A model generated the notes under the pieces. It saw only the letters and a program-made list of their open reading frames with translations. It did no database searches and was not told the DNA's origin. A program made the translations under genes and the position numbers. From NCBI RefSeq assembly GCF_000829315.1, contig NZ_AP013028.1, positions 750,001 through 782,000 on the forward strand: a stretch of 32,000 bases of DNA, read 5' to 3'. Positions 7,838 through 26,198 of the stretch are shown one piece after another. Source of the stretch: Wolbachia endosymbiont of Cimex lectularius. Lineage in GTDB: Bacteria > Pseudomonadota > Alphaproteobacteria > Rickettsiales > Anaplasmataceae. The number at the start of each line of letters is the position of its first letter. The first letter of the stretch is position 1.

Positions 7838-8326
7838 ATGTGGAACAGGGCGTGTAGAAAAGGAGTTATCTCAATATTGAGTTTTTTGCTTGTTATCCTG
7901 GTCTTAGTGGTTGTAGTCCAAGTTTTTACCAGGGGCCGAAGTTGTGTCAAAGCTAGTGATCATGATATTGAAGCGTTGTTTAATCGTTGGAATGATTCGT
8001 TAAAAACTGGCGATGCCTACCAGGTTAACGCAAACTACACTGATGATGCAGTGTTGCTGCCAACTTTATCCTCTAGCCCTAGAACAACTAGTGCTCAGCG
8101 CGTTGATTACTTTAAAGATTTTTTAGCTAAATATCCAACTGCAGAAATTGAGTCACGCACTATAAACATTGGATGTAATAAAGCTGTCGATACGGGCTTA
8201 TATACCTTCAGACTGAAGGACGGAAAGGAGTTACGTGCTCGTTACACATTTACTTACAGATGGGACAAGAATAAATGGCTAATATCATCGCATCACTCTT
8301 CATTGCCACCTGAAAATCACTCGTAA
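7838..8326 (+). CDS. Membrane-anchored NTF2-like (SnoaL/DUF4440, CaMKII-association-domain-like) protein
   Basis: N-terminal hydrophobic anchor VISILSFLLVILVLVVVVQVF. It is followed by ...W..SLKTGDA......Y.DDAVLLPT.S...R........YF..FL...P......T...G.......G.YTF....G......RYTFTY......W.ISSHHSS.P, the pattern I associate with this NTF2-like family. ATG at 7838; an alternative TTG lies at 7826. Confidence 0.6.
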   Translation: MWNRACRKGVISILSFLLVILVLVVVVQVFTRGRSCVKASDHDIEALFNRWNDSLKTGDAYQVNANYTDDAVLLPTLSSSPRTTSAQRVDYFKDFLAKYPTAEIESRTINIGCNKAVDTGLYTFRLKDGKELRARYTFTYRWDKNKWLISSHHSSLPPENHS

Positions 8327-8354
8327 CTTTGGAGCTTTGGCATGGCTATCTATA

Positions 8355-8993
8355 GAACTTTCGTCATCGGGAAAGCAAATAAAATAGCATGATAAATTGG
8401 TTCAAACCTATAATCATAAGCAGAAAGCGCTAGATTTCTTGCATAACCACATCAAACCAGTTCTTGGCAGCGCTTTGGATTCAACAGAAACAAAAAAACT
8501 ACCTTGACAAATTTCTCCGGTTCCCTTATCATATTATTGAAGCTATTTATTTATTTTCGCAATCTGTGCAGGTTAATGACAAAAAACTTAGGGTATTTGG
8601 CGTCTCATGTTTAAATTTTTGCACTATGTGCACCTCACGTCTTTTTAAAACTTCTGGTTTTTACCTATACAAGCTGAAACGCGCTTATAAGTCGTTTAAG
8701 ACAGTATAGAACGTCAAATAGACAAGGGAGAATTTGAATACTAGCTGCTCTAGGTTTCTTTTGCCTTTTTTTCTGCTCAGTAAATTTCTTAACGTTTACA
8801 GTTTGGGTTATTTGCATTTAAAAGTAGCTGAATCGTAGCGCTGAGAATAAAAACGCCGATATTTGAGGTACATATAAATAATTAGCCACCGACCAGGGTT
8901 TCTTTTGCCTTTTTCTCGTTTAGTAAATTTCTTAAGCATAAAGGTTATACCAACTTTCGTTATCAAACAAGACACATAATAAATTCACTAACC
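8355..8993 (+). repeat. Mosaic intergenic repeat family, copy A (longest)
   Basis: Shares long blocks with 16552-17073, 23790-24180 and (reverse strand) 20113-20298. Examples: aaaaactac(c)ttgacaa..., ...ctttttaaaacttctggtttttacc.acaagctgaaacgcgcttataagtcgtttaagaca, and ...gggtttcttttgcc.tttt.ct....agtaaatttcttaa (present twice in this copy). It is flanked by a related ~45-55-bp module (8355-8412 and 8950-8993). Confidence 0.8.
8504..8532 (+). promoter_or_regulatory. sigma70-type promoter inside repeat copy A
   Basis: TTGACA (8504-8509), a 17-nt spacer, then TATCAT (8527-8532). Geometry is identical in copies B and C. Confidence 0.55.
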
Positions 8994-9107
8994 TAATCGT
9001 AGGAAGACTTTTTAATTTACTATTGGAATTTGGTATAATAATGAGGTTTGGTATAAGACAATGCTTCAGTTTGCAGGTGTTTGATCGTTAATACAAGTAT
9101 ATATTGA

Positions 9108-18097: not shown

Positions 18098-18520
18098 CTA
18101 GGCAAAAGAGCGTTCAACAACCCATCTTTTTGGCAATACGACGAAAGTGTGTAACTCACTTCGCTTTATTACTTCAACAGTCGCACCAATGATAGCTTTT
18201 ATTTGTGTTGCAAAATTTTCTCCTGTGTAGCCAGCATCAACCAGTATGTTTTTAACTTCAGAGAGGTTTGCTTTAGCATTTTCGACCATTTTCACAGCAC
18301 TGCTACGGTCAGTTGCTTCTGCCGTTGTTACATAAATTGCATGTGGCAAACCTTGTGTATCAACTGCAATATGGCGCTTTATCCCTGAAATCTTTTTACC
18401 TGCATCATAGCCTTTTTTTTCAGCAGTATCTGCGTTTTTAACGCTTTGAGAATCAATTATACAAAAGCTAGTTTTCTCTTTCCGACCATTGCTGATACGG
18501 ACCTCTCCAACTAATTTTTT
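18098..18520 (-). pseudogene. IS5-family transposase OrfB (DDE part), truncated by a premature stop
   Basis: The +1 frame opens inside the A8 run (18515-18522). At 18099 this copy has T where copies 2 and 3 have C, so sense TGG (Trp) becomes TAG. This removes the last 35 residues (WLEKCRRLWKNCER...). Confidence 0.8.
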
Positions 18521-18788
18521 TTAAGACTAATTCCAACAAGCTTGGCTCTTCTCCATTCTTTTTACTCCACACTCGAAAATAGTAATATACGCTTTCCCAT
18601 CTTGGAAAACCCTTTGGTAACATCCTCCACTGACAACCACTTTTTAAGACGTACAACACCCCACAAAATACGTCATACAAATCAAGTTTTCTTGGTTTTG
18701 TTTTCTGCTTGCTACTCTCCAAAATTGGCCTGATTTTTTCAAACTGCTCTTGACTTATATTACTTGGATAACTTTTCTGCATAGACAC
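18468..18788 (-). CDS. IS5-family transposase OrfA (N-terminal DNA-binding part)
   Basis: 106 aa, MSMQKSYPSNISQEQFEKIRPIL...YVLKSGCQWRMLPKGFP.W..VYYYFR.W, which is typical of the IS5-family N-terminal domain. Confidence 0.9.
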   Translation of the reverse strand: MSMQKSYPSNISQEQFEKIRPILESSKQKTKPRKLDLYDVFCGVLYVLKSGCQWRMLPKGFPRWESVYYYFRVWSKKNGEEPSLLELVLKKISWRGPYQQWSEREN

Positions 18789-18846
18789 CTCATTATTAAT
18801 CTATGCTTACTTTACCTCACATTTCCAAGATTTTAAACAGGTTCTT

Positions 18847-19310
18847 AGAAGGAACCGCATAGATGTAGTAGAAGCTCTGTTAAGAGCAGAGGGAATCAAT
18901 ATTAATGAAGATGATTATTCTGGAAACACTCCTTTGCATTGGGCTGTCTATGGTGGCAATTTAGATATAGTAAAAGCTCTGTTAGATAAGGGAGCAAGTA
19001 TTAATGTAGTAAATGGGATGGCGATACTCCTCTAGATTTAACTACTAACGAAGAAATAAAAGCTCTATTACAAAAAGAATCTATCACATCTACAACAGAA
19101 GAACAAACAAGCACTTTTTTTGACAGTTTTTTTAGTATACTTATAAAGCCTATTTCATTAATGGTATTATTTTCTTGTGGTTTAATATCATGGTTGCTTT
19201 GGTCTCACATAAAAAAAACTGAAGGAAATGCAGAACAATCTTGTGATCCATTAGTTGGACTAAATGATAGTGATTATAACGACCAAAATGATCTACATCT
19301 CTTCCAATAA
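18847..19310 (+). pseudogene. 3' fragment of an ankyrin-repeat gene with a C-terminal TM helix; 5' end cut off by IS copy 1, plus an internal frameshift
   Basis: Frame from 18847: RNRIDVVEALLRAEGININEDDYSGNTPLHWAVYGGNLDIVKALLDKGASINVVNG. It stops unless one G is added to the GGG run at 19015-17. It then reads DGDTPLDL...FFDSFFSILIKPISLMVLFSCGLISWLLW...LFQ* (TAA 19308-19310). Confidence 0.75.
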
Positions 19311-19445
19311 ATTTAGTAACATATAGTGTTAATTCCAATTACACAAAGAGCAGATATGCCACTTTACACCGCTGTTTTACTTGCTTCAGTAAGGGCTTTT
19401 TCTTCAGATCTGTTCTCTGAGCAACGGTAGATAAAGTTGTGTGTT

Positions 19446-19973
19446 CTAGCTCATGAAACACCTTGATAAATCTTTATCCTTCGCTGTAATATCTAATAGA
19501 CGTATTTCTGTGCTTGGTGTCTTTTCAACTATTTCCCAGTCACTGATACAAATATCATCTTCTTGTTCTGATAATCTACAATCATTTTCGTTAACGATTT
19601 CCCACTCACTATTTTGGTAATCATTAATGAACCTTTCAATTTTTTCTGCTTTTACTCCGCTAAACTTATGCAACACTTTTTCACAGAGTTCAATCATCCT
19701 TTCTTTCGTGGAAGAACAAATTCCACTTTCAGTAAACTTCTCTAACGAATAGTCTATTTGAGCCAACCATTTCAAATCTTCTTTTTCAGAAGTTGTAATG
19801 ATTTCTGGCGAGGAAGTTGTAATATCTATATTTTGATGCTGCTCATCCTGCTTTGGCTCTATTGTTATATAACAATCATCACTAAAGAAAAGATCTCTCA
19901 AATCTGTACAAAAAGGGCCATAGAGAAATTCGTTCCATTTCTGATTTATTTTAGTAAAAAGATTGCTAAACAT
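19446..19973 (-). CDS. Acidic hypothetical protein (175 aa) with two (S/D)-W-E-I-V motifs
   Basis: Single clean ORF starting at an ATG. No recognisable family. SEWEIV is encoded at about 19593-19610 and SDWEIV at 19527-19544. Confidence 0.55.
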   Translation of the reverse strand: MFSNLFTKINQKWNEFLYGPFCTDLRDLFFSDDCYITIEPKQDEQHQNIDITTSSPEIITTSEKEDLKWLAQIDYSLEKFTESGICSSTKERMIELCEKVLHKFSGVKAEKIERFINDYQNSEWEIVNENDCRLSEQEDDICISDWEIVEKTPSTEIRLLDITAKDKDLSRCFMS

Positions 19974-20112
19974 TTTATTACTCCTTGGTTAACTTTATTA
20001 AATATTAGCACAATAAATTAAATTTAGTAAATATTTTATTAAGATATCAATTAGTTAGTAGATAATCATTAAGATAATATTTTAAATAATTCATATGCTA
20101 AAATATATTAAT

Positions 20113-20298
20113 CTTGTATAGGTAAAAACCAGAAGTTTTATAAAGACATGCGGTGCACATAGTGCGAAAAATAGTACGCCAAATACAAGTTTTCTTGTCG
20201 TTTTGACCTGTACAGATTGGAAAGTTAAATAAATAGCTTCAATACCGTGGTAAGGGAACTGAAGGAATTTGTTAAGTAGTTTTTTTTGTTCCTATTGG
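20113..20298 (-). repeat. Mosaic intergenic repeat family, copy D (truncated, promoter hexamers degenerate)
   Basis: The reverse complement aligns with the 5' part of copies A-C. It has TTAACA (20270-20275), a 17-nt spacer and TACCAC (20247-20252) in place of TTGACA/TATCAT. It ends after ...tacctatacaag. Confidence 0.7.
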
Positions 20299-20320
20299 AG
20301 ACGGTTGTTGTATGCCTATT

Positions 20321-22237
20321 TCAACAGTAGACAGCGTCATTTCTAATTACCTTAACATTTTCCCTTGGTAGTTCTTTAATGAATCGCGAGGCATACATTG
20401 GCTGCCACTGGTTATTCACTTCCCTTCTGTCTGCGCATGAAATAATCAACTTTTCTTTTGCTCTGGTTATTCCAACATATGCAAGTCTTCTTTCTTCTTC
20501 CAAAGCTTTGCCACTATTGTCCTCAAAAGATCTTTGATGTGGAAATAATCCCTCTTCCCAGCCAGGCAGAAACACACATGGAAATTCAAGTCCCTTAGCT
20601 GCATGAAGAGTCATAACATATACGGTGTTGTCATTATTCATATTATCCACTTCCATCACTAGACTTATGTGCTCTAGGAAAGTTGTAGCACTATCGAAAT
20701 TTTTCAAAGATGAAATGAGTTCTCTAACATTCTCTATGCGTGCTAAACCTGTTACTTCTTCATTTTCAAGCATTTCAATATATCCTGATTGATTTGCTGT
20801 AGTTTTAACAAGCTCGTTTAGCGGCTTTACGCTTACTATTTCTTCCCAAGCTTTGATTTTATTTAAAAAACCATTTAGTGAAAGTTTGATTTTCTCAGTG
20901 ACTTGATTACTATCAACCAATGTTCTTGCCGCTTCAAAAAAAGAAATTCTGTTGTCTTGAGCGACCGCATATATCTTTTTCATGGTGGTCGGCCCTATGC
21001 TTCTTTTTGGCCGATTTACTATCCTCTCGAAAGCTAGGTCATCATTATTGTTTATAACGAGTCTTAAATATGCGATTATGTCTCTAACTTCTTGACGTTC
21101 GTAGAATTTTACGCCACTTACAATCTTATAAGGAATTGAGTATTTTATAAAGTACTCTTCTAGAACTCTAGTTTGGAAAGTAGCTCTCACCAGCACTGCA
21201 ATGTCACTGAATTTGTATTTATTGAGCTTTAATATCTGTTCGCTTATGAACCTAGCTTCGGTTTTCCCATCCCATAGTTTTATTAGATTTACTTTCTCTC
21301 CTTTAATATTTGTTGTCCACAATTTTTTTTCTAAGCGGGTTTTATTGTGATTGATAACATGTGATGCAGTTGCAAGTATATGGGATGTTGATCTGTAATT
21401 GCATTCCAGTTTGACGGTTTTTGCACCTTTAAAGTCGTCGGAAAATTTTAAAATGTTTTCAACTTCTGCACCACGCCAACTATATATCGATTGGTCATCG
21501 TCTCCCACACAGCAAATATTTGAGTGCTCTTTTGCAAGGTATTTTAACCAAAGATATTGTATTGCATTTGTATCTTGATACTCATCTACCATGATATATT
21601 TAAATTTGTTTTGGTAGTAGGACAGAGTTTCAGTATTTTGGTTGAAAAGTTGTATATTGTATAGCAGTAAATCACCAAAATCGACAGAGTTAAGGAATTT
21701 TAACCTTTCTTGATATTGGCGATAGACTTTTAATGCGGTTACATATACTGGCCTAAATAATTGGGTTTCTTCCACTTCAGATGGCAGTAAACACTTTTCT
21801 TTCCATTTCTGGATTATATTCATAATGGTGCTATCTTTCTCTGATGGATTATTGGAACTTATTTCATTAATGATGTTTTTTATTACCTGCAATTGGTCAT
21901 CTACACCAATGATTGTAAAATTAGAGTTTAAGCCTACAATTTCAGCATGACGGCGTAAAATTTTTGCTGCAATTGTATGGAAAGTGCCAAGCCATGGTAT
22001 ATTTGTGCCCGTGAGTTCAAGTACCCTTGATACCATTTCATTTGCTGCTTTGTTTGTGAATGTGACTGCTAATATCTCATCAGAATGAGCGTAGCCATTT
22101 CGAATTATATGCGCTATTCTTGAAGTAATTGTTCTTGTTTTTCCTGTTCCAGCACCGGCCAATATCAAAACTGGCCCATCTACGTTAGTTACAGCCAATT
22201 GTTGTTCCGAATTTAGCAGTGAGAGATAATCATTCAT
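20321..22237 (-). CDS. uvrD: UvrD/Rep/PcrA-family ATP-dependent DNA helicase
   Basis: 638 aa. Motifs AGAGTGKT (I), TFTNKAA (Ia), VDEYQDTN (II), GDDDQSIYSWRGA (III), YRS, TLHAAKGLEF (V) and LAYVGITRAK (VI). Confidence 0.93.
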   Translation of the reverse strand: MNDYLSLLNSEQQLAVTNVDGPVLILAGAGTGKTRTITSRIAHIIRNGYAHSDEILAVTFTNKAANEMVSRVLELTGTNIPWLGTFHTIAAKILRRHAEIVGLNSNFTIIGVDDQLQVIKNIINEISSNNPSEKDSTIMNIIQKWKEKCLLPSEVEETQLFRPVYVTALKVYRQYQERLKFLNSVDFGDLLLYNIQLFNQNTETLSYYQNKFKYIMVDEYQDTNAIQYLWLKYLAKEHSNICCVGDDDQSIYSWRGAEVENILKFSDDFKGAKTVKLECNYRSTSHILATASHVINHNKTRLEKKLWTTNIKGEKVNLIKLWDGKTEARFISEQILKLNKYKFSDIAVLVRATFQTRVLEEYFIKYSIPYKIVSGVKFYERQEVRDIIAYLRLVINNNDDLAFERIVNRPKRSIGPTTMKKIYAVAQDNRISFFEAARTLVDSNQVTEKIKLSLNGFLNKIKAWEEIVSVKPLNELVKTTANQSGYIEMLENEEVTGLARIENVRELISSLKNFDSATTFLEHISLVMEVDNMNNDNTVYVMTLHAAKGLEFPCVFLPGWEEGLFPHQRSFEDNSGKALEEERRLAYVGITRAKEKLIISCADRREVNNQWQPMYASRFIKELPRENVKVIRNDAVYC

Positions 22238-22396
22238 TGTAGCCCTACCAAATATAGTCCCATAAGTTAACCCTATTGTTCACGCTCTGTAAAGTCTTTG
22301 TTTTGAATTTGATCTAGGCAGTGACAATCACTGAAAAAATTGGCCGAGATTTACAATAAGATACGTAAGGAAATATCGTGCATATACTAAAACCGG

Positions 22397-22470
22397 TGGG
22401 ATTGGTAGGACTCGAACCTACGACCAATTCGTTATGAGCGAACTGCTCTAACCAACTGAGCTACAATCCC
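22397..22470 (-). tRNA. tRNA with CAU anticodon (elongator Met or lysidine-dependent Ile2)
   Basis: Manual fold of the reverse complement: GGGATTG/CAATCCC acceptor, GCTC-AGTTGGTTA-GAGC, anticodon stem GTTCG/CGAAT with loop CT-CAT-AA, variable TGGTC, T arm GTAGG-TTCGAGT-CCTAC, discriminator A. CCA is not encoded. Confidence 0.88.
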
Positions 22471-22512
22471 CTTCATTAATATTTATAATACACACAAAAA
22501 CAAATTTGTCTA

Positions 22513-22836
22513 TTAGCTTATTTCGCTATCAACCCAGCTTAACAAGTCACTTATTGCAGCAATTTTGCGTGCAACTTCCTTACCGTCTTGAAATATGATC
22601 AAAGTAGGTATGGATTGAATTCCATATTTACTCGGCGCTTCAGTTCCTTCATCTATATTGAACTTGCAGATCTTAACTTTGCCCTTCTTATCTTTAGCTA
22701 ATTGTTCAATGCGCGGCATTAGACTTTTACATGGTCCACACCACTCTGCCCAAAAGTCCACTAATACAAACCCCTTGTAATCAGTGACCTCAGACTTAAA
22801 ATTTTGATCATTTATTGATGTAATATCGTCACTCAT
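22513..22836 (-). CDS. trxA: Thioredoxin
   Basis: WCGPC active site. About 107 aa from MSDDITSINDQNF.... The 15-codon upstream extension in the ORF track is unlikely to be real. Confidence 0.93.
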   Translation of the reverse strand: MSDDITSINDQNFKSEVTDYKGFVLVDFWAEWCGPCKSLMPRIEQLAKDKKGKVKICKFNIDEGTEAPSKYGIQSIPTLIIFQDGKEVARKIAAISDLLSWVDSEIS

Positions 22837-22945
22837 AAAATACCTAGCTAAATTTGTACAATATAGCGCACTTACCAGCAACTAATCAACTAAATTCTTA
22901 CTGAGTAGCCTGAAAAATTGCCTAAAGCGTTTTGCATAGCTTCCA

Positions 22946-23566
22946 TTACACCTGATGACTAAAGATGTCCACATTTTCCCACCCCATTAAATCTAATTCA
23001 ACACGAGTAGGAAGAAATTCAAAGCACTTTTGGGCTAATTCTTTTCTGTTTTCACGTTCCAGCATAGAATCTAGCTTTTCCTTTATTTTATGGAGATATA
23101 AAACATCAGATGCAGCATAACTTTTTTGTTTATCCGTTAAATCCTCACTTCCCCAATCGGAGGATTGCTGCTGCTTATTTAACTTAGTATCAAGCAATTC
23201 TAGGCATAATTCCTTTAGGCTATGATTGTCTGTATAAGTACGAACCAAACGTGAAGCTATTTTTGTGCAATAGCATGGAAGTGCCCAAGTTTTCAAGTAA
23301 TAGCGTATTATGCTGACATCAAACCGTGCAAAGTGAAATATTTTAGTTATACTTTTATCCCCCAATATTTTTCTTAAGTTTGGAGCTGTATAATCACTTT
23401 TCAATTGAACCAAGTGAGCGTTGCCGTTATTAAAAGAGAGCTGTACAAGACACAATCTGTCTCTAACGTGAAGTAGCCCCATTGCCTCTGTATCAACAGC
23501 TATAGACCTTACGTTATCTGGTATTGAACTAGCCGGCAGGTCATCTTTGTGTACAAATATCCTCAT
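22946..23566 (-). CDS. rnd: Short RNase D-like 3'-5' exonuclease (DEDD family)
   Basis: IAVDTEAMGL (Exo I), a HFARFD-type Exo II region, and YAASDVLYLH (Exo III, DEDDy). 206 aa. Confidence 0.85.
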   Translation of the reverse strand: MRIFVHKDDLPASSIPDNVRSIAVDTEAMGLLHVRDRLCLVQLSFNNGNAHLVQLKSDYTAPNLRKILGDKSITKIFHFARFDVSIIRYYLKTWALPCYCTKIASRLVRTYTDNHSLKELCLELLDTKLNKQQQSSDWGSEDLTDKQKSYAASDVLYLHKIKEKLDSMLERENRKELAQKCFEFLPTRVELDLMGWENVDIFSHQV

Positions 23567-23706
23567 AAGGCTTTGTGAAATATTGAAAGACTAATAATAA
23601 TTGAAAGTGAGTTTTAAGTACACAAATAATAGACAGCTCCTAACATTTTAGTATGCATGGGGTTTACAAATCGTTGTATATACCTATAATTAAGAAGTGA
23701 AAGACT

Positions 23707-23779
23707 GCGGGAGTAGTTCAGTTGGTAGAACGCAACCTTGCCAAGGTTGAGGTCGAGGGTTCGAACCCCTTCTCCCGCT
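23707..23779 (+). tRNA. tRNA-Gly (anticodon GCC)
   Basis: GCGGGAG/CTCCCGC acceptor, GTTC-AGTTGGTA-GAAC, anticodon stem CAACC/GGTTG with loop TT-GCC-AA, T arm GAGGG-TTCGAAC-CCCTT, discriminator T. Followed by a T7 run. Confidence 0.9.
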
Positions 23780-23789
23780 CTTTTTTTCC

Positions 23790-24180
23790 AAAATCATTCA
23801 AAAAATTTACTTGACAACTTTCGCCGTTACCCTTATAATGATACTGAAGCTATTTGTTTAACTTCCCAATCTGTGCACTGCATGTCTTTTTAAAACTTTG
23901 GGTTTTTGCCCATACAAGCTGAAACGCGCTTATAAGTCGTTTAAGACATCACCCAACGCCGGATTTTAAAATAGAGAGTGGAATAACTAGCTACCTCGGG
24001 GTTTTATTGTCTTTTTCCTCTGTCTGGTAAATTTCTTAAATATTATAGCTTAAACTAGTTGCGTTTAAAAGCAGCTAAATTGCAGCGTTTAAGGCATAAA
24101 AACGCCAATACTGAAAATAAATACTAACCAGGGCTTCTTTTGCTTTTTTTCAGCCTTGCTACTCGTTAGCGCTGCATTGG
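23790..24180 (+). repeat. Mosaic intergenic repeat family, copy C
   Basis: Starts just after tRNA-Gly. Shares the promoter block, the ...caagctgaaacgcgcttataagtcgtttaagaca block, two ...cttcttttgc/taaatttcttaa modules, and a gctactcgttagcgctgc tail related to 17034-17053 in copy B. Confidence 0.8.
23811..23839 (+). promoter_or_regulatory. Perfect-consensus sigma70 promoter inside repeat copy C
   Basis: TTGACA (23811-23816), a 17-nt spacer, then TATAAT (23834-23839). Confidence 0.6.
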
Positions 24181-24792
24181 CTATATCACATGGGATTGTG
24201 CAATAGATGCAGCTTAACATAAAAAGTTTGACTTTTTGAAGTTTTGTGTTATGCTCAGGCTCAAATATAGTTCGCTATTAGTAAGGGGTAGTTACCATGA
24301 ATAAAGAAGAAGCTTTAAAAGTATTGGAAATATCAGATGATCCTTCTGCTCCTGACATTGTTTGTAAAGTTAAGCAGCGACTTAAAAATTACATAAGGAT
24401 AGCATAGAGAACCTCTCAGAGAAAATAGAAGCATGCAAATTTCTTACTGATGGTCAAGAAGATCAAGCAGAAGTTTTCTCGGACCTTGTAATATCAGCCA
24501 TTAACGACGATAAACTAGATTTTCTGAAGTTGTTGCTAGAGACAGTAAAAAATGATAACGAATTTAACTATTTGAATACAGAAGGTACTGGTGGCAATAT
24601 ACCATTAAACTTCGCGCTTGGGCATACAAGTTGTAAACATGAGTCAAGAATTAAGGCCATAAGTTTACTTTTAAAGTACGGTGCTAATCCTAATATAAAA
24701 GATCAAGAAGGCAAGTCGTTACTCTGCTGTGTTATTGATAGCCATGGCGATATTGATCGTTATAAAGCTGTAGAATTACTCTTAGAACCTGT

Positions 24793-25321
24793 TTAAAATC
24801 TTCGTAACAGGAGAGAAATGAAGGAGAGGACTATCATCTGTAAGCTAGTGTTGAGCTTCCGCTCGCAATTTTTCCACAATCGCCTGCACTTTTCTAACCA
24901 GGCAAAAGAGCGTTCAACAACCCATCTTTTTGGCAATACGACGAAAGTGTGTAACTCACTTCGCTTTATTACTTCAACAGTCGCACCAATGATAGCTTTT
25001 ATTTGTGTTGCAAAATTTTCTCCTGTGTAGCCAGCATCAACCAGTATGTTTTTAACTTCAGAGAGGTTTGCTTTAGCATTTTCGACCATTTTCACAGCAC
25101 TGCTACGGTCAGTTGCTTCTGCCGTTGTTACATAAATTGCATGTGGCAAACCTTGTGTATCAACTGCAATATGGCGCTTTATCCCTGAAATCTTTTTACC
25201 TGCATCATAGCCTTTTTTTTTCAGCAGTATCTGCGTTTTTAACGCTTTGAGAATCAATTATACAAAAGCTAGTTTTCTCTTTCCGACCATTGCTGATACG
25301 GACCTCTCCAACTAATTTTTT
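24793..25321 (-). pseudogene. IS5-family transposase OrfB, frame broken by an A8 to A9 expansion
   Basis: The sense strand reads GCT GAA AAA AAA AGG CTA TGA here, against GCT GAA AAA AAA GGC TAT GAT in copies 1 and 3. The DDE region is therefore in a third frame relative to OrfA. Confidence 0.8.
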
Positions 25322-25589
25322 TTAAGACTAATTCCAACAAGCTTGGCTCTTCTCCATTCTTTTTACTCCACACTCGAAAATAGTAATATACGCTTTCCCA
25401 TCTTGGAAAACCCTTTGGTAACATCCTCCACTGACAACCACTTTTTAAGACGTACAACACCCCACAAAATACGTCATACAAATCAAGTTTTCTTGGTTTT
25501 GTTTTCTGCTTGCTACTCTCCAAAATTGGCCTGATTTTTTCAAACTGCTCTTGACTTATATTACTTGGATAACTTTTCTGCATAGACAC
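25269..25589 (-). CDS. IS5-family transposase OrfA
   Basis: Translation identical to OrfA of copy 1. Confidence 0.9.
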   Translation of the reverse strand: MSMQKSYPSNISQEQFEKIRPILESSKQKTKPRKLDLYDVFCGVLYVLKSGCQWRMLPKGFPRWESVYYYFRVWSKKNGEEPSLLELVLKKISWRGPYQQWSEREN

Positions 25590-26198
25590 CTCATTATTAA
25601 TCTATGCTTACTTTACCTCACATTTCCAAGATTTTAAACAGGTTCTTAGATAAGGGTGTTAATCCTAATGTGCAGGATAATCAAGGTAGAACACCGTTGC
25701 ACTACTTATGTAGCAAATATTATGAAGCTGGTAGTGTTAAAATCGCAAAATTGCTCTTAAGAAGAGGTGCTGATCCAGATTCGAAGGATCAAAGTGGCAA
25801 AAAACCAATAGACCTTGTTAACCCTGACAGTAGCGTTGGAAGGCTATTTGGTGCTGTTAATTATAAGAAAGCATTCCGGTTTGGATGTGCTACGTTATTA
25901 ACTACAGCAGGTAGTATTGCCTTGATTTCTGGGGTTGCAGACGCGTACATAGGTAAAGTTTGGTGTTCTACTCTTGCAGTAGGTATGGCTGCTATTGCAT
26001 TATATTGTGCGTACCAAACAATAAAAATGATGTTTTTTTCAGGGCCCTCAACTGAATTCACTGAAGCTAGGGCAGAGTTTCTTAATAGTCAGAAATCACC
26101 AAATCCGGCAGGTGGAGCTTAATAATTAGAGACTAAAGGAGTTCTTTTTTAAAAAACTTAAGGTATAATATAGGTATTTGATATCTTTTATAGTGATT

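Follow-up and report, generated by a model that had tools for sequence, protein, structure and literature searches.

Correia (NEMIS) elements in Neisseria contain functional promoters and are co-transcribed with their neighbors, and ERIC, BOX and BIME are mosaic intergenic repeats. "Putative mobile promoters," homologous promoter sequences placed upstream of non-homologous genes within and between genomes, were reportedly described by Matus-Garcia et al. in Nucleic Acids Research in 2012. In Wolbachia, which is not yet open to engineering, transcription factors are few and promoters are poorly defined. Here, we have analyzed a stretch of 32,000 nucleotides (nt) from the Wolbachia endosymbiont of Cimex lectularius (contig NZ_AP013028.1, positions 750,001 to 782,000; "the window"), in which an intergenic repeat occurs in four copies, A to D (Table 1). 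We think it probable that a full copy is a self-contained non-coding transcription unit, part of a dispersed repeat that is specific to Wolbachia and numbers tens of copies per genome. The element is best described as a promoter-carrying dispersed repeat, known before in pieces, rather than as a small-RNA gene. It links two things that were described separately, namely variable-number tandem repeat (VNTR) typing markers and intergenic transcripts mapped through rapid cDNA-end amplification (RACE).

The transcripts come from fruit-fly Wolbachia of the wMel type. Intergenic regions IGR-1021, IGR-1047 and IGR-1049 of wMel were picked for their high intergenic-specific signal in RNA-seq of wMelPop-CLA, and 5' RACE was done on the picked regions, with inserts cloned for IGR-1021 and IGR-1047 (Woolfit 2015, PMC4349823). 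That report handles each region as a single candidate small RNA (sRNA), dropped for read-through or repetitiveness, and, in the parts consulted here, does not present them as a single promoter-bearing repeat family. The tandem repeats are VNTR-141 and VNTR-105, both intergenic in wMel (Riegler et al. 2012, PMC3287509). A third description may concern the same family: the wMel "repeat family 8" has 45 copies of more than 200 bp, without similarity to known elements and flanked by inverted repeats (Wu et al. 2004, PMC368164). Compared by description only, it is likewise a high-copy Wolbachia repeat of unknown type, but we found no flanking inverted repeats here. No named Wolbachia repeat or miniature inverted-repeat transposable element of this kind came up in our literature searches.

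The promoter is the best-defined part of the element. An earlier note on this DNA, made from the sequence alone, had pointed to TTGACA, exactly 17 nt, and then TATCAT, TATCAT or TATAAT in three copies, and the geometry is exactly as it claimed. The promoters of copies A, B and C are the top three sigma-70 matches in a scan of 17 kb (positions 8000 to 25000), with 12/12 consensus positions in copy C and 11/12 in each of A and B; weaker promoter-like matches numbered 58, against 56 expected from shuffles. The fourth copy, D, does have decayed hexamers at the same spacing, as had been noted. Among the 89 family copies that span the region, TTGACA is exact in 84 and the 17-nt spacing is kept in 85, against 61 distinct sequences for the spacer itself. 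Mean pairwise identity across the family is 0.97 in the -35 box, 0.61 in the spacer, 0.82 in the -10 box and 0.59 in the next 6 nt. It is 0.84 to 1.0 in the A-tract plus CTAC that precedes the -35 box, and this A-tract may act as an UP-like element. Site by site, identity in the -10 box is.98,.92,.72,.52,.92 and.86, in agreement with the known roles of positions 1, 2 and 6, which matter most in sigma-70 -10 boxes. Were the hexamer sites drifting like the spacer, TTGACA would survive in a minority of copies only. The promoter geometry is constrained across about 90 copies, and the view of the earlier note that this is not neutral repeat debris stands. Both the feature and its promoter are real, and transcription is very probable.

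The same promoter design is found outside the family. At least 120 unrelated low-GC phage contigs (viral contigs L128-L247) have AAAACTACTTGACAA, 16 nt, and TATNAT, often just 5' of a ribosome-binding site and an ATG; the motif, a widespread "super-consensus" promoter context, extends to the CTAC that precedes the -35 box. No homology to other parts of the element exists in these contigs (no nhmmer hits). Since the geometry and a 15-mer are common to unrelated phage contigs, the first 45 nt of the element amount to a generic optimal promoter. This ruled out reading them as a family signature or as a sign of phage origin.

Where transcription starts was revealed by the wMel homologues. The primers published for IGR-1021, IGR-1047, IGR-1049 and IGR-1035 are sequences of the repeat family, and the RACE inserts match the family hidden Markov model (HMM) in nhmmer with E values of 9e-64 (IGR-1021) and 6e-49 (IGR-1047). 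These loci share with the window copies the GAAGC start motif, the core, the dyad and a unit ending in TAAATTTCTTAA. They differ in belonging to a supergroup A strain and in their genomic sites, which are WD1243/WD1244 for IGR-1021 and ispH/WD1275 for IGR-1047. After the RNA adapter (ending ...GAAGAAA), the inserts open with GAAGGCATTCAGTTATCTTC... and GAAGCTATTGTATTTGC..., the sequences right past the adapter being GAAGGCATTC... and GAAGCTATTG... (GAAGGC.../GAAGCT...). In both RNAs the 5' end is the G of GAAGC, 7 nt past the -10 hexamer. Starts about 7 nt past the -10 box had been predicted in the earlier note, and in these two homologues published 5' RACE places them at exactly 7 nt. Every family copy has this G at the same distance from its -10 hexamer, and in copies A, B and C we predict the starts there by homology. 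According to the same report, the IGR-1021 RNA is co-transcribed with the downstream coding sequence WD1244 (PMC4349823). In the IGR-1047 insert, the RNA part is about 290 nt long and extends across the weak hairpin, the dyad and the first unit. The failure of RACE at IGR-1049 is uninformative, because the published primers are in the sense orientation of the element.

The 3' part of the element consists of tandem units resembling VNTR-141. The dyad cgcttataagtcg is present in A, B and C and absent from D, as had been stated. The modules gggtttcttttgcc...taaatttcttaa, which had been described as following the dyad in one or two copies, are indeed present in these numbers, but they are not free-standing: each is the 3' portion of a diverged tandem unit, about 140 nt long, to which the dyad also belongs. 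By repeat search and alignment, the units start at the dyad and are spaced by 143 nt in copy A. There are two in copy A, one in copy B, and one plus a decayed second in copy C, and all five (A1, A2, B1, C1 and C2) can be aligned. Tandem Repeats Finder made no tandem call on the copies; the units are only about 68% alike. VNTR-141, too, is made of intergenic units placed head to tail; the period is about 141 nt there and 143 nt here, with one or two units per copy here, and the number of units varies between strains there and between orthologous copies here. The last 13 nt at the 3' end of the VNTR-141 reverse primer (AGGTTAGTTGCAT) lie in the linker after unit 1 at several loci and in the IGR-1047 insert; at the level of primers, which is the level of this comparison, the reverse primer and the linker differ by 3 edits at 14 loci. 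On the other hand, the 23-bp hairpin with a 9-bp stem of VNTR-141 is not evident in units A1, A2 and C1, the A and C units having only a weak dyad (-3.9 kcal/mol), and a promoter is unmentioned in the VNTR literature. Two further observations concern VNTR-105. A strong GC-rich palindrome occurs once, directly after copy B (-22.1 kcal/mol). Its core, GCTACGCGTTAGCGG, is similar to the primers published for IGR-834 and IGR-921 of wMel (the VNTR-105 locus), and a decayed version of it follows copy C at about 24150-24180. Copy C starts about 10 nt past the 3' end of tRNA-Gly(GCC) (23707-23780), and the VNTR-105 locus of wMel is likewise 3' of a tRNA (tRNA-Arg-4); a preference for the 3' flanks of tRNAs is conceivable.

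The family is large and confined to Wolbachia in our searches. The core 27-mer has exact matches at no fewer than 120 loci, all of them in nine Wolbachia genomes, which agrees with the multi-copy nature claimed for it. Among the matches listed, the five richest genomes have 29, 23, 20, 17 and 16 loci; the matches come from wMoz, wPaur, wTis, a metagenome-assembled genome labelled Paracimex and similar genomes, and many loci are at contig ends. The supergroup A strain wRi also has a truncated copy, flanked by ruvA and the 3' end of rnhB. It was the one copy met in a BLAST search of phage and plasmid sequences, in a record labelled phage WO, where it sits among chromosomal genes; plasmids gave no hit. 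In an all-against-all comparison, the shared homology starts sharply 15 to 25 nt upstream of the -35 box and stops past the first unit or the second, about 125 or 250 nt beyond the seed. No gene recurs on either side and nothing is shared beyond the element, so that no gene travels with the repeat. Around half of the copies carry an alternative upstream module, of which there are at least two types. One type begins with TAGAYTTCTTGCATAA, and this left end resembles the unit end TAAATTTCTTAAGCATAA as a direct, not an inverted, repeat. The upstream neighbors are of mixed orientation (24 to 21). Copies are often flush with the stop codon of the upstream gene, or about 125 to 145 nt from a divergent start, which is as expected from tolerated insertion in a compact genome.

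Within these boundaries the copies are mosaics. Orthologous copies whose flanks are 95 to 100% identical fall to 42 to 77% identity in patches, namely the spacer, +1 to +30, +45 to +65 and the 3' units. In the clearest pair (loci L053 and L092), identity is around 99% in the flanks and over a core of about 210 nt, and the rewritten parts are the left junction, the spacer, +1 to +30, +45 to +65 and the 3' unit. Either version of every patch is also found in other copies. This patchwise divergence, with both versions present elsewhere, indicates short-patch gene conversion between copies, as judged from the alignments, and would explain the mosaic aspect that had been noticed before. In the 5' transcribed region, the window copies differ from each other by deletions that took place between short direct repeats internal to the element (CTCATGT/CTCACGT; TCTGTGCA/TATGTGCA). 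Copy B has lost about 27 nt internally in this way, and about 75 nt of the 5' transcribed region are missing from copy C.

We propose the following mechanism. The repeat would open with an A-tract and a near-consensus sigma-70 promoter, from which RNA polymerase would start at the G 7 nt past the -10 box, as 5' RACE indicates in the two wMel homologues. Transcription would then cover a 5' region of about 140 nt and one or more diverged units of about 140 nt of the VNTR-141 type. Since the element lacks its own terminator, the RNA would run on, in the sense direction into co-oriented genes (such as rsmE after copy A) and in antisense into convergent ones. The copies, which lie in intergenic DNA in either orientation, would evolve by gain and loss of units, deletion between short repeats, and short-patch gene conversion. 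The element itself would be mainly selfish or near-neutral, its active promoter feeding the transcription of neighbors as a side effect.

Several observations weigh against this proposal. The activity of the copies in this strain is deduced from their wMel homologues, and the two wMel start coordinates are not listed in the Cappable-seq supplements, from a study that dropped multi-mapping reads. The published RACE used treatment with tobacco acid pyrophosphatase (TAP) without a minus-TAP control, making a processed 5' end formally possible, although this is unlikely, given that the ends of two independent copies coincide with the canonical +1 of a consensus promoter. The hexamers, which had been suspected of being better conserved than the flanking repeat, are far above the spacer but are equalled by several blocks downstream of the start: the transcribed blocks TTTGGCGTC and TTTTTGCACTATGTGCAC and the dyad are just as conserved. 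This hints at a constraint beyond the promoter for which our proposal does not account. In the window, copies A, C and D face co-oriented open reading frames (ORFs; at 9108, 24278 and 19973). Finally, a repeat search revealed no terminal inverted repeats joining the element ends, and a search of the flank pairs of all loci found only filled orthologous sites, with no empty site or target duplication. We infer that the repeat is mobile, and how it spreads, from its copy number and the differing locations of its copies alone. A comparison of locus L053 with the window, which we considered as an empty site, turned out to be a rearrangement.

Could the conserved blocks be a functional RNA? The earlier note had favored a small-RNA gene, and the family could encode a trans-acting regulatory RNA, bacterial or cross-kingdom, for which the promoter is kept. 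We regard this as improbable. The element has its own strong promoter, with the 5' end mapped in homologues, the homologous RNAs were highly expressed and intergenic-specific in the RNA-seq of wMelPop-CLA (PMC4349823), the conserved blocks are within the transcript, and the random orientation of the copies suits a stand-alone gene. Some subfamilies also have better hairpins: the 5' stem, with four pairs and -2 to -4 kcal/mol in the window copies, reaches -10.2 kcal/mol in the L096 type, and ACAAG/CTTGT is replaced by ACAAAG/CTTTGT. However, beyond the promoter, the marks of a classical trans-acting sRNA were not found: there is no terminator or defined 3' end, and no covarying structure. RNAalifold on 77 copies gave a consensus of -3.4 kcal/mol with 5 invariant pairs and 0 compensatory pairs. 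Four hand-built helices (the 5' stem GAAGCUA/UAGCUUC, a long-range UUGGCGU/ACGCCAA, UGCAC/GUGCA and the A/U hairpin) were 87.7% paired against 86.0% in shuffles, a small excess only, and their double-change pairs were not above shuffles (73/500). The strands showed no asymmetry, with 169 G-U against 105 A-C cells, but 16 against 15 when counted by pair, and the many G/U-rich helices from an exhaustive stack search were spurious. Compared with shuffles, the transcripts predicted for A, B and C fold in an unremarkable way (z of -0.7, -1.3 and -0.5), and a terminator scan found none in any window copy. The inverted repeat taaaac-ttctg-gttttta, noted before in three copies, is kept in A, B and D, with an altered form in C, but as a hairpin it is negligible: it is outside the minimum-free-energy fold of copy A (-2.0 kcal/mol for the segment), and the wMel IGR-1047 RNA reads through the equivalent site. 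Rfam at the gathering threshold matched 3 tRNAs only, and an E-value scan of 8300-9100 gave only noise. Deletions and insertions between copies remove 27 to 75 nt of the RNA, and the wMel transcripts either extend to at least 290 nt or, for IGR-1021, are co-transcribed with the next gene. A related idea, that the element needs its transcription, either because the RNA is a functional multi-copy regulator (e.g., a sponge, an antisense source or a host-directed molecule) or because RNA or transcription is required for spread or gene conversion, seems to us unlikely. If it were true, the variable patches (spacer, +1 to +30, +45 to +65) would be functional allele classes and not drift.

The other suggestion of the earlier note, a mobile promoter cassette, corresponds to a portable promoter with a long leader, kept for driving the gene that follows it at each insertion site. 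The co-oriented ORFs facing A, C and D, the co-transcription of IGR-1021 with WD1244 and the lack of a terminator fit this idea, which we nevertheless hold to be unlikely. Where a downstream ORF could be called (43 copies), it is co-oriented with the copy in 19 cases and convergent in 24, the wRi copy aims into the 3' end of the convergent rnhB, the distance to co-oriented starts is highly variable (82 to 936 nt), and a separate promoter-like TTGGAA...TATAAT is located between copy A and rsmE. The absence of co-orientation enrichment, together with a conserved unit of 350 to 600 nt, far above the length of a promoter, also distinguishes the family from the putative mobile promoters. The element delivers a promoter to new places, with no sign of selection for that. 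Neutral debris, with promoter-like hexamers present by chance or inherited without function, is largely refuted and very improbable. AT-rich DNA does give many promoter-like matches, as in our scan, and the copies have common ancestry, so that shared hexamers alone prove nothing. Yet hexamers and spacing have been kept against the 61 spacer variants, and the 5' ends mapped by published RACE in two independent wMel copies coincide exactly with the expected +1. A small-protein or type I toxin-like locus, encoding a short hydrophobic basic peptide, is the case for which we see hardly any chance. The 37-amino-acid ORF MFNFLHYVHLMSLLISPRLLGFSLYKLKRAYKSFKTV is open in 18/77 copies of one subfamily, but it has 13 amino acids in copy A, its start is deleted in B and C, the ATG is missing in 29/77 copies, there is no Shine-Dalgarno sequence, and the substitutions within the subfamily are mostly amino-acid changing. 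In that subfamily (L096, L038, L118 and others), a 15-nt insertion that is absent from the window copies opens this ORF and creates the hairpin CCTAG-ACTT-CTAGG plus T5 (-7 kcal/mol). The 81-codon ORF of copy A (8464-8709) is not conserved, as had been said, and its start is upstream of the predicted transcript start.

The wMel transcripts are the nearest relatives of the promoter-carrying element described here. In function it resembles Correia elements and the putative mobile promoters, without belonging to these families. The Correia, ERIC, BOX and BIME repeats are also short, non-coding, high-copy and intergenic, some of them modular or mosaic. The element differs from them in that we found no terminal inverted repeats, TA duplication or sequence similarity, in that its promoter is at the 5' boundary and reads through the whole element instead of outward, and in that its body is made of tandem units of 140 nt. 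This may have several implications. Some of the orphan and antisense starts and of the "candidate sRNAs" in Wolbachia transcriptomes would be explained by tens of near-consensus promoters that read into neighbors both ways; many such signals are lost once multi-mapping reads are discarded. The repeat also accounts for many assembly breaks. Its compact (about 45 nt) and naturally strong native promoter could be used in future genetic tools. More generally, it is a clear case of a promoter kept intact amid the gene-conversion shuffling of the surrounding repeat.

Table 1. Coordinates in the window of the repeat copies and of their parts.
Feature	Position	Strand	Evidence or remark
Copy A, full element	8421-8996	+	nhmmer envelopes 8421-8890 and 8875-8996, E 1.3e-116; MAFFT; upstream module, promoter, 5' transcribed region, two tandem units of ~140 nt
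Copy A, A-tract AAAAAAACTAC	8492-8498	+	right before the -35 region; family pairwise identity 0.84-1.0
Copy A, sigma-70-type promoter	8504-8532	+	TTGACA 8504-8509, 17 nt, TATCAT 8527-8532; 11/12 matches
Copy A, predicted start	8539	+	G of GAAGCTATT, 7 nt past -10 box; homology to wMel RACE inserts
Copy A, palindrome TGCAC-TAT-GTGCA	8620-8632	+	in transcribed region; helix 91% of cells paired, nearly invariant, so uninformative
Copy A, weak A/U inverted repeat taaaac-ttctg-gttttta	8646-8663	+	followed by T-run; no credible terminator
Copy A, unit 1	8676-8797	+	dyad cgcttataagtcg, AACGYCAA, T-rich GGTTTCTTTTGCC, TAAATTTCTTAA; alignment, repeat families D3/D4
Copy A, dyad	8682-8694	+	
Copy A, unit 2	8818-8945	+	diverged from unit 1; D4 spacing 143, period ~143 nt; alignment
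Copy B	16691-17077	+	nhmmer family HMM, MAFFT
Copy B, promoter	16739-16767	+	TTGACA 16739-16744, 17 nt, TATCAT 16762-16767; 11/12 matches
Copy B, predicted start	16774	+	homology
Copy B, tandem unit	16881-17005	+	single unit
Copy B, dyad	16887-16899	+	
Copy B, GC-rich palindrome	17027-17076		after the unit
Copy C	23768-24147	+	nhmmer family HMM, MAFFT
Copy C, promoter	23811-23839	+	TTGACA 23811-23816, 17 nt, TATAAT 23834-23839; 12/12 matches
Copy C, predicted start	23846	+	homology
Copy C, unit 1	23921-24048	+	
Copy C, dyad	23927-23939	+	
Copy C, unit 2	24060-24185	+	decayed
Copy D	20107-20328	-	truncated past weak inverted repeat; nhmmer E 1e-49; MAFFT
Copy D, decayed promoter	20275-20247	-	TTAACA 20275-20270, 17 nt, TACCAC 20252-20247
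Copy D, start-equivalent	20240	-	homology

Exactly the four copies that had been claimed were recovered by repeat search, MAFFT and nhmmer with the family HMM over the whole window, and no further copies were found there by these methods. The window copies match the family HMM with E values of 1e-49 to 1e-116. Their core extents agree with those given before, except that the 5' extras then included in copies A (8355-8420) and B (16552-16690) are another short repeat and an alternative upstream module. Copy D is a truncated, decayed relic, located between the stop of a uvrD-like gene (20321) and the ORF 19973-19446, and the same truncated copy is present at the orthologous site in locus L053.

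The intergenic DNA of Wolbachia is here a patchwork of several small repeat families. The short repeat ATACCAACYTTYGTTAT ... AAATTCACTMAACC is found at 8343-8400 and 8940-8990, on both sides of copy A, and at 16552-16610, left of copy B. In locus L080 the orthologue of the left flank of A is joined to a B-like copy, and hence these repeats may mark a point of rearrangement or recombination. A palindromic sequence, actgggtcccagtgtcacgcacttggatgacagg, at 1676-1712 closely resembles the published 5' RACE insert of the wMel putative sRNA ncrwmel01 (IGR-60), and a similar copy adjoins a family member in L053 (4271-4369). It is another dispersed Wolbachia repeat to which the name sRNA has been given. 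The short dispersed motif CCAATTMCAYTRCACAAAGAGCRGATGGACAA also lies beside family members, in the window (19331-19360), in L053 (4422-4450), and upstream in L023, L035 and L075.

The window has a G+C content of about 35% and contains genes for ankyrin-repeat proteins, gyrA, atpG, sucA and a uvrD-like helicase. Several Wolbachia assemblies encode an RsmE identical to the one at 9108-9833, after copy A, and in two of them the flanks of copy A are matched at 100%, which identifies the window as Wolbachia DNA. The rsmE gene (+) shares its last 87 nt (9747-9833) with the 3' end of a convergent ORF of 825 amino acids (9747-12224, -), which encodes a coiled-coil protein and contains direct repeats at 11002-11326. 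The window also has three copies of an IS5-like insertion sequence, each about 870 bp long (17981-18848, 24780-25650 and 28908-29777). These copies are 99 to 100% identical to each other, with imperfect terminal inverted repeats of 48 nt and a transposase reading frame in two parts, and at least two of the three break ankyrin-repeat ORFs, which suggests recent activity.

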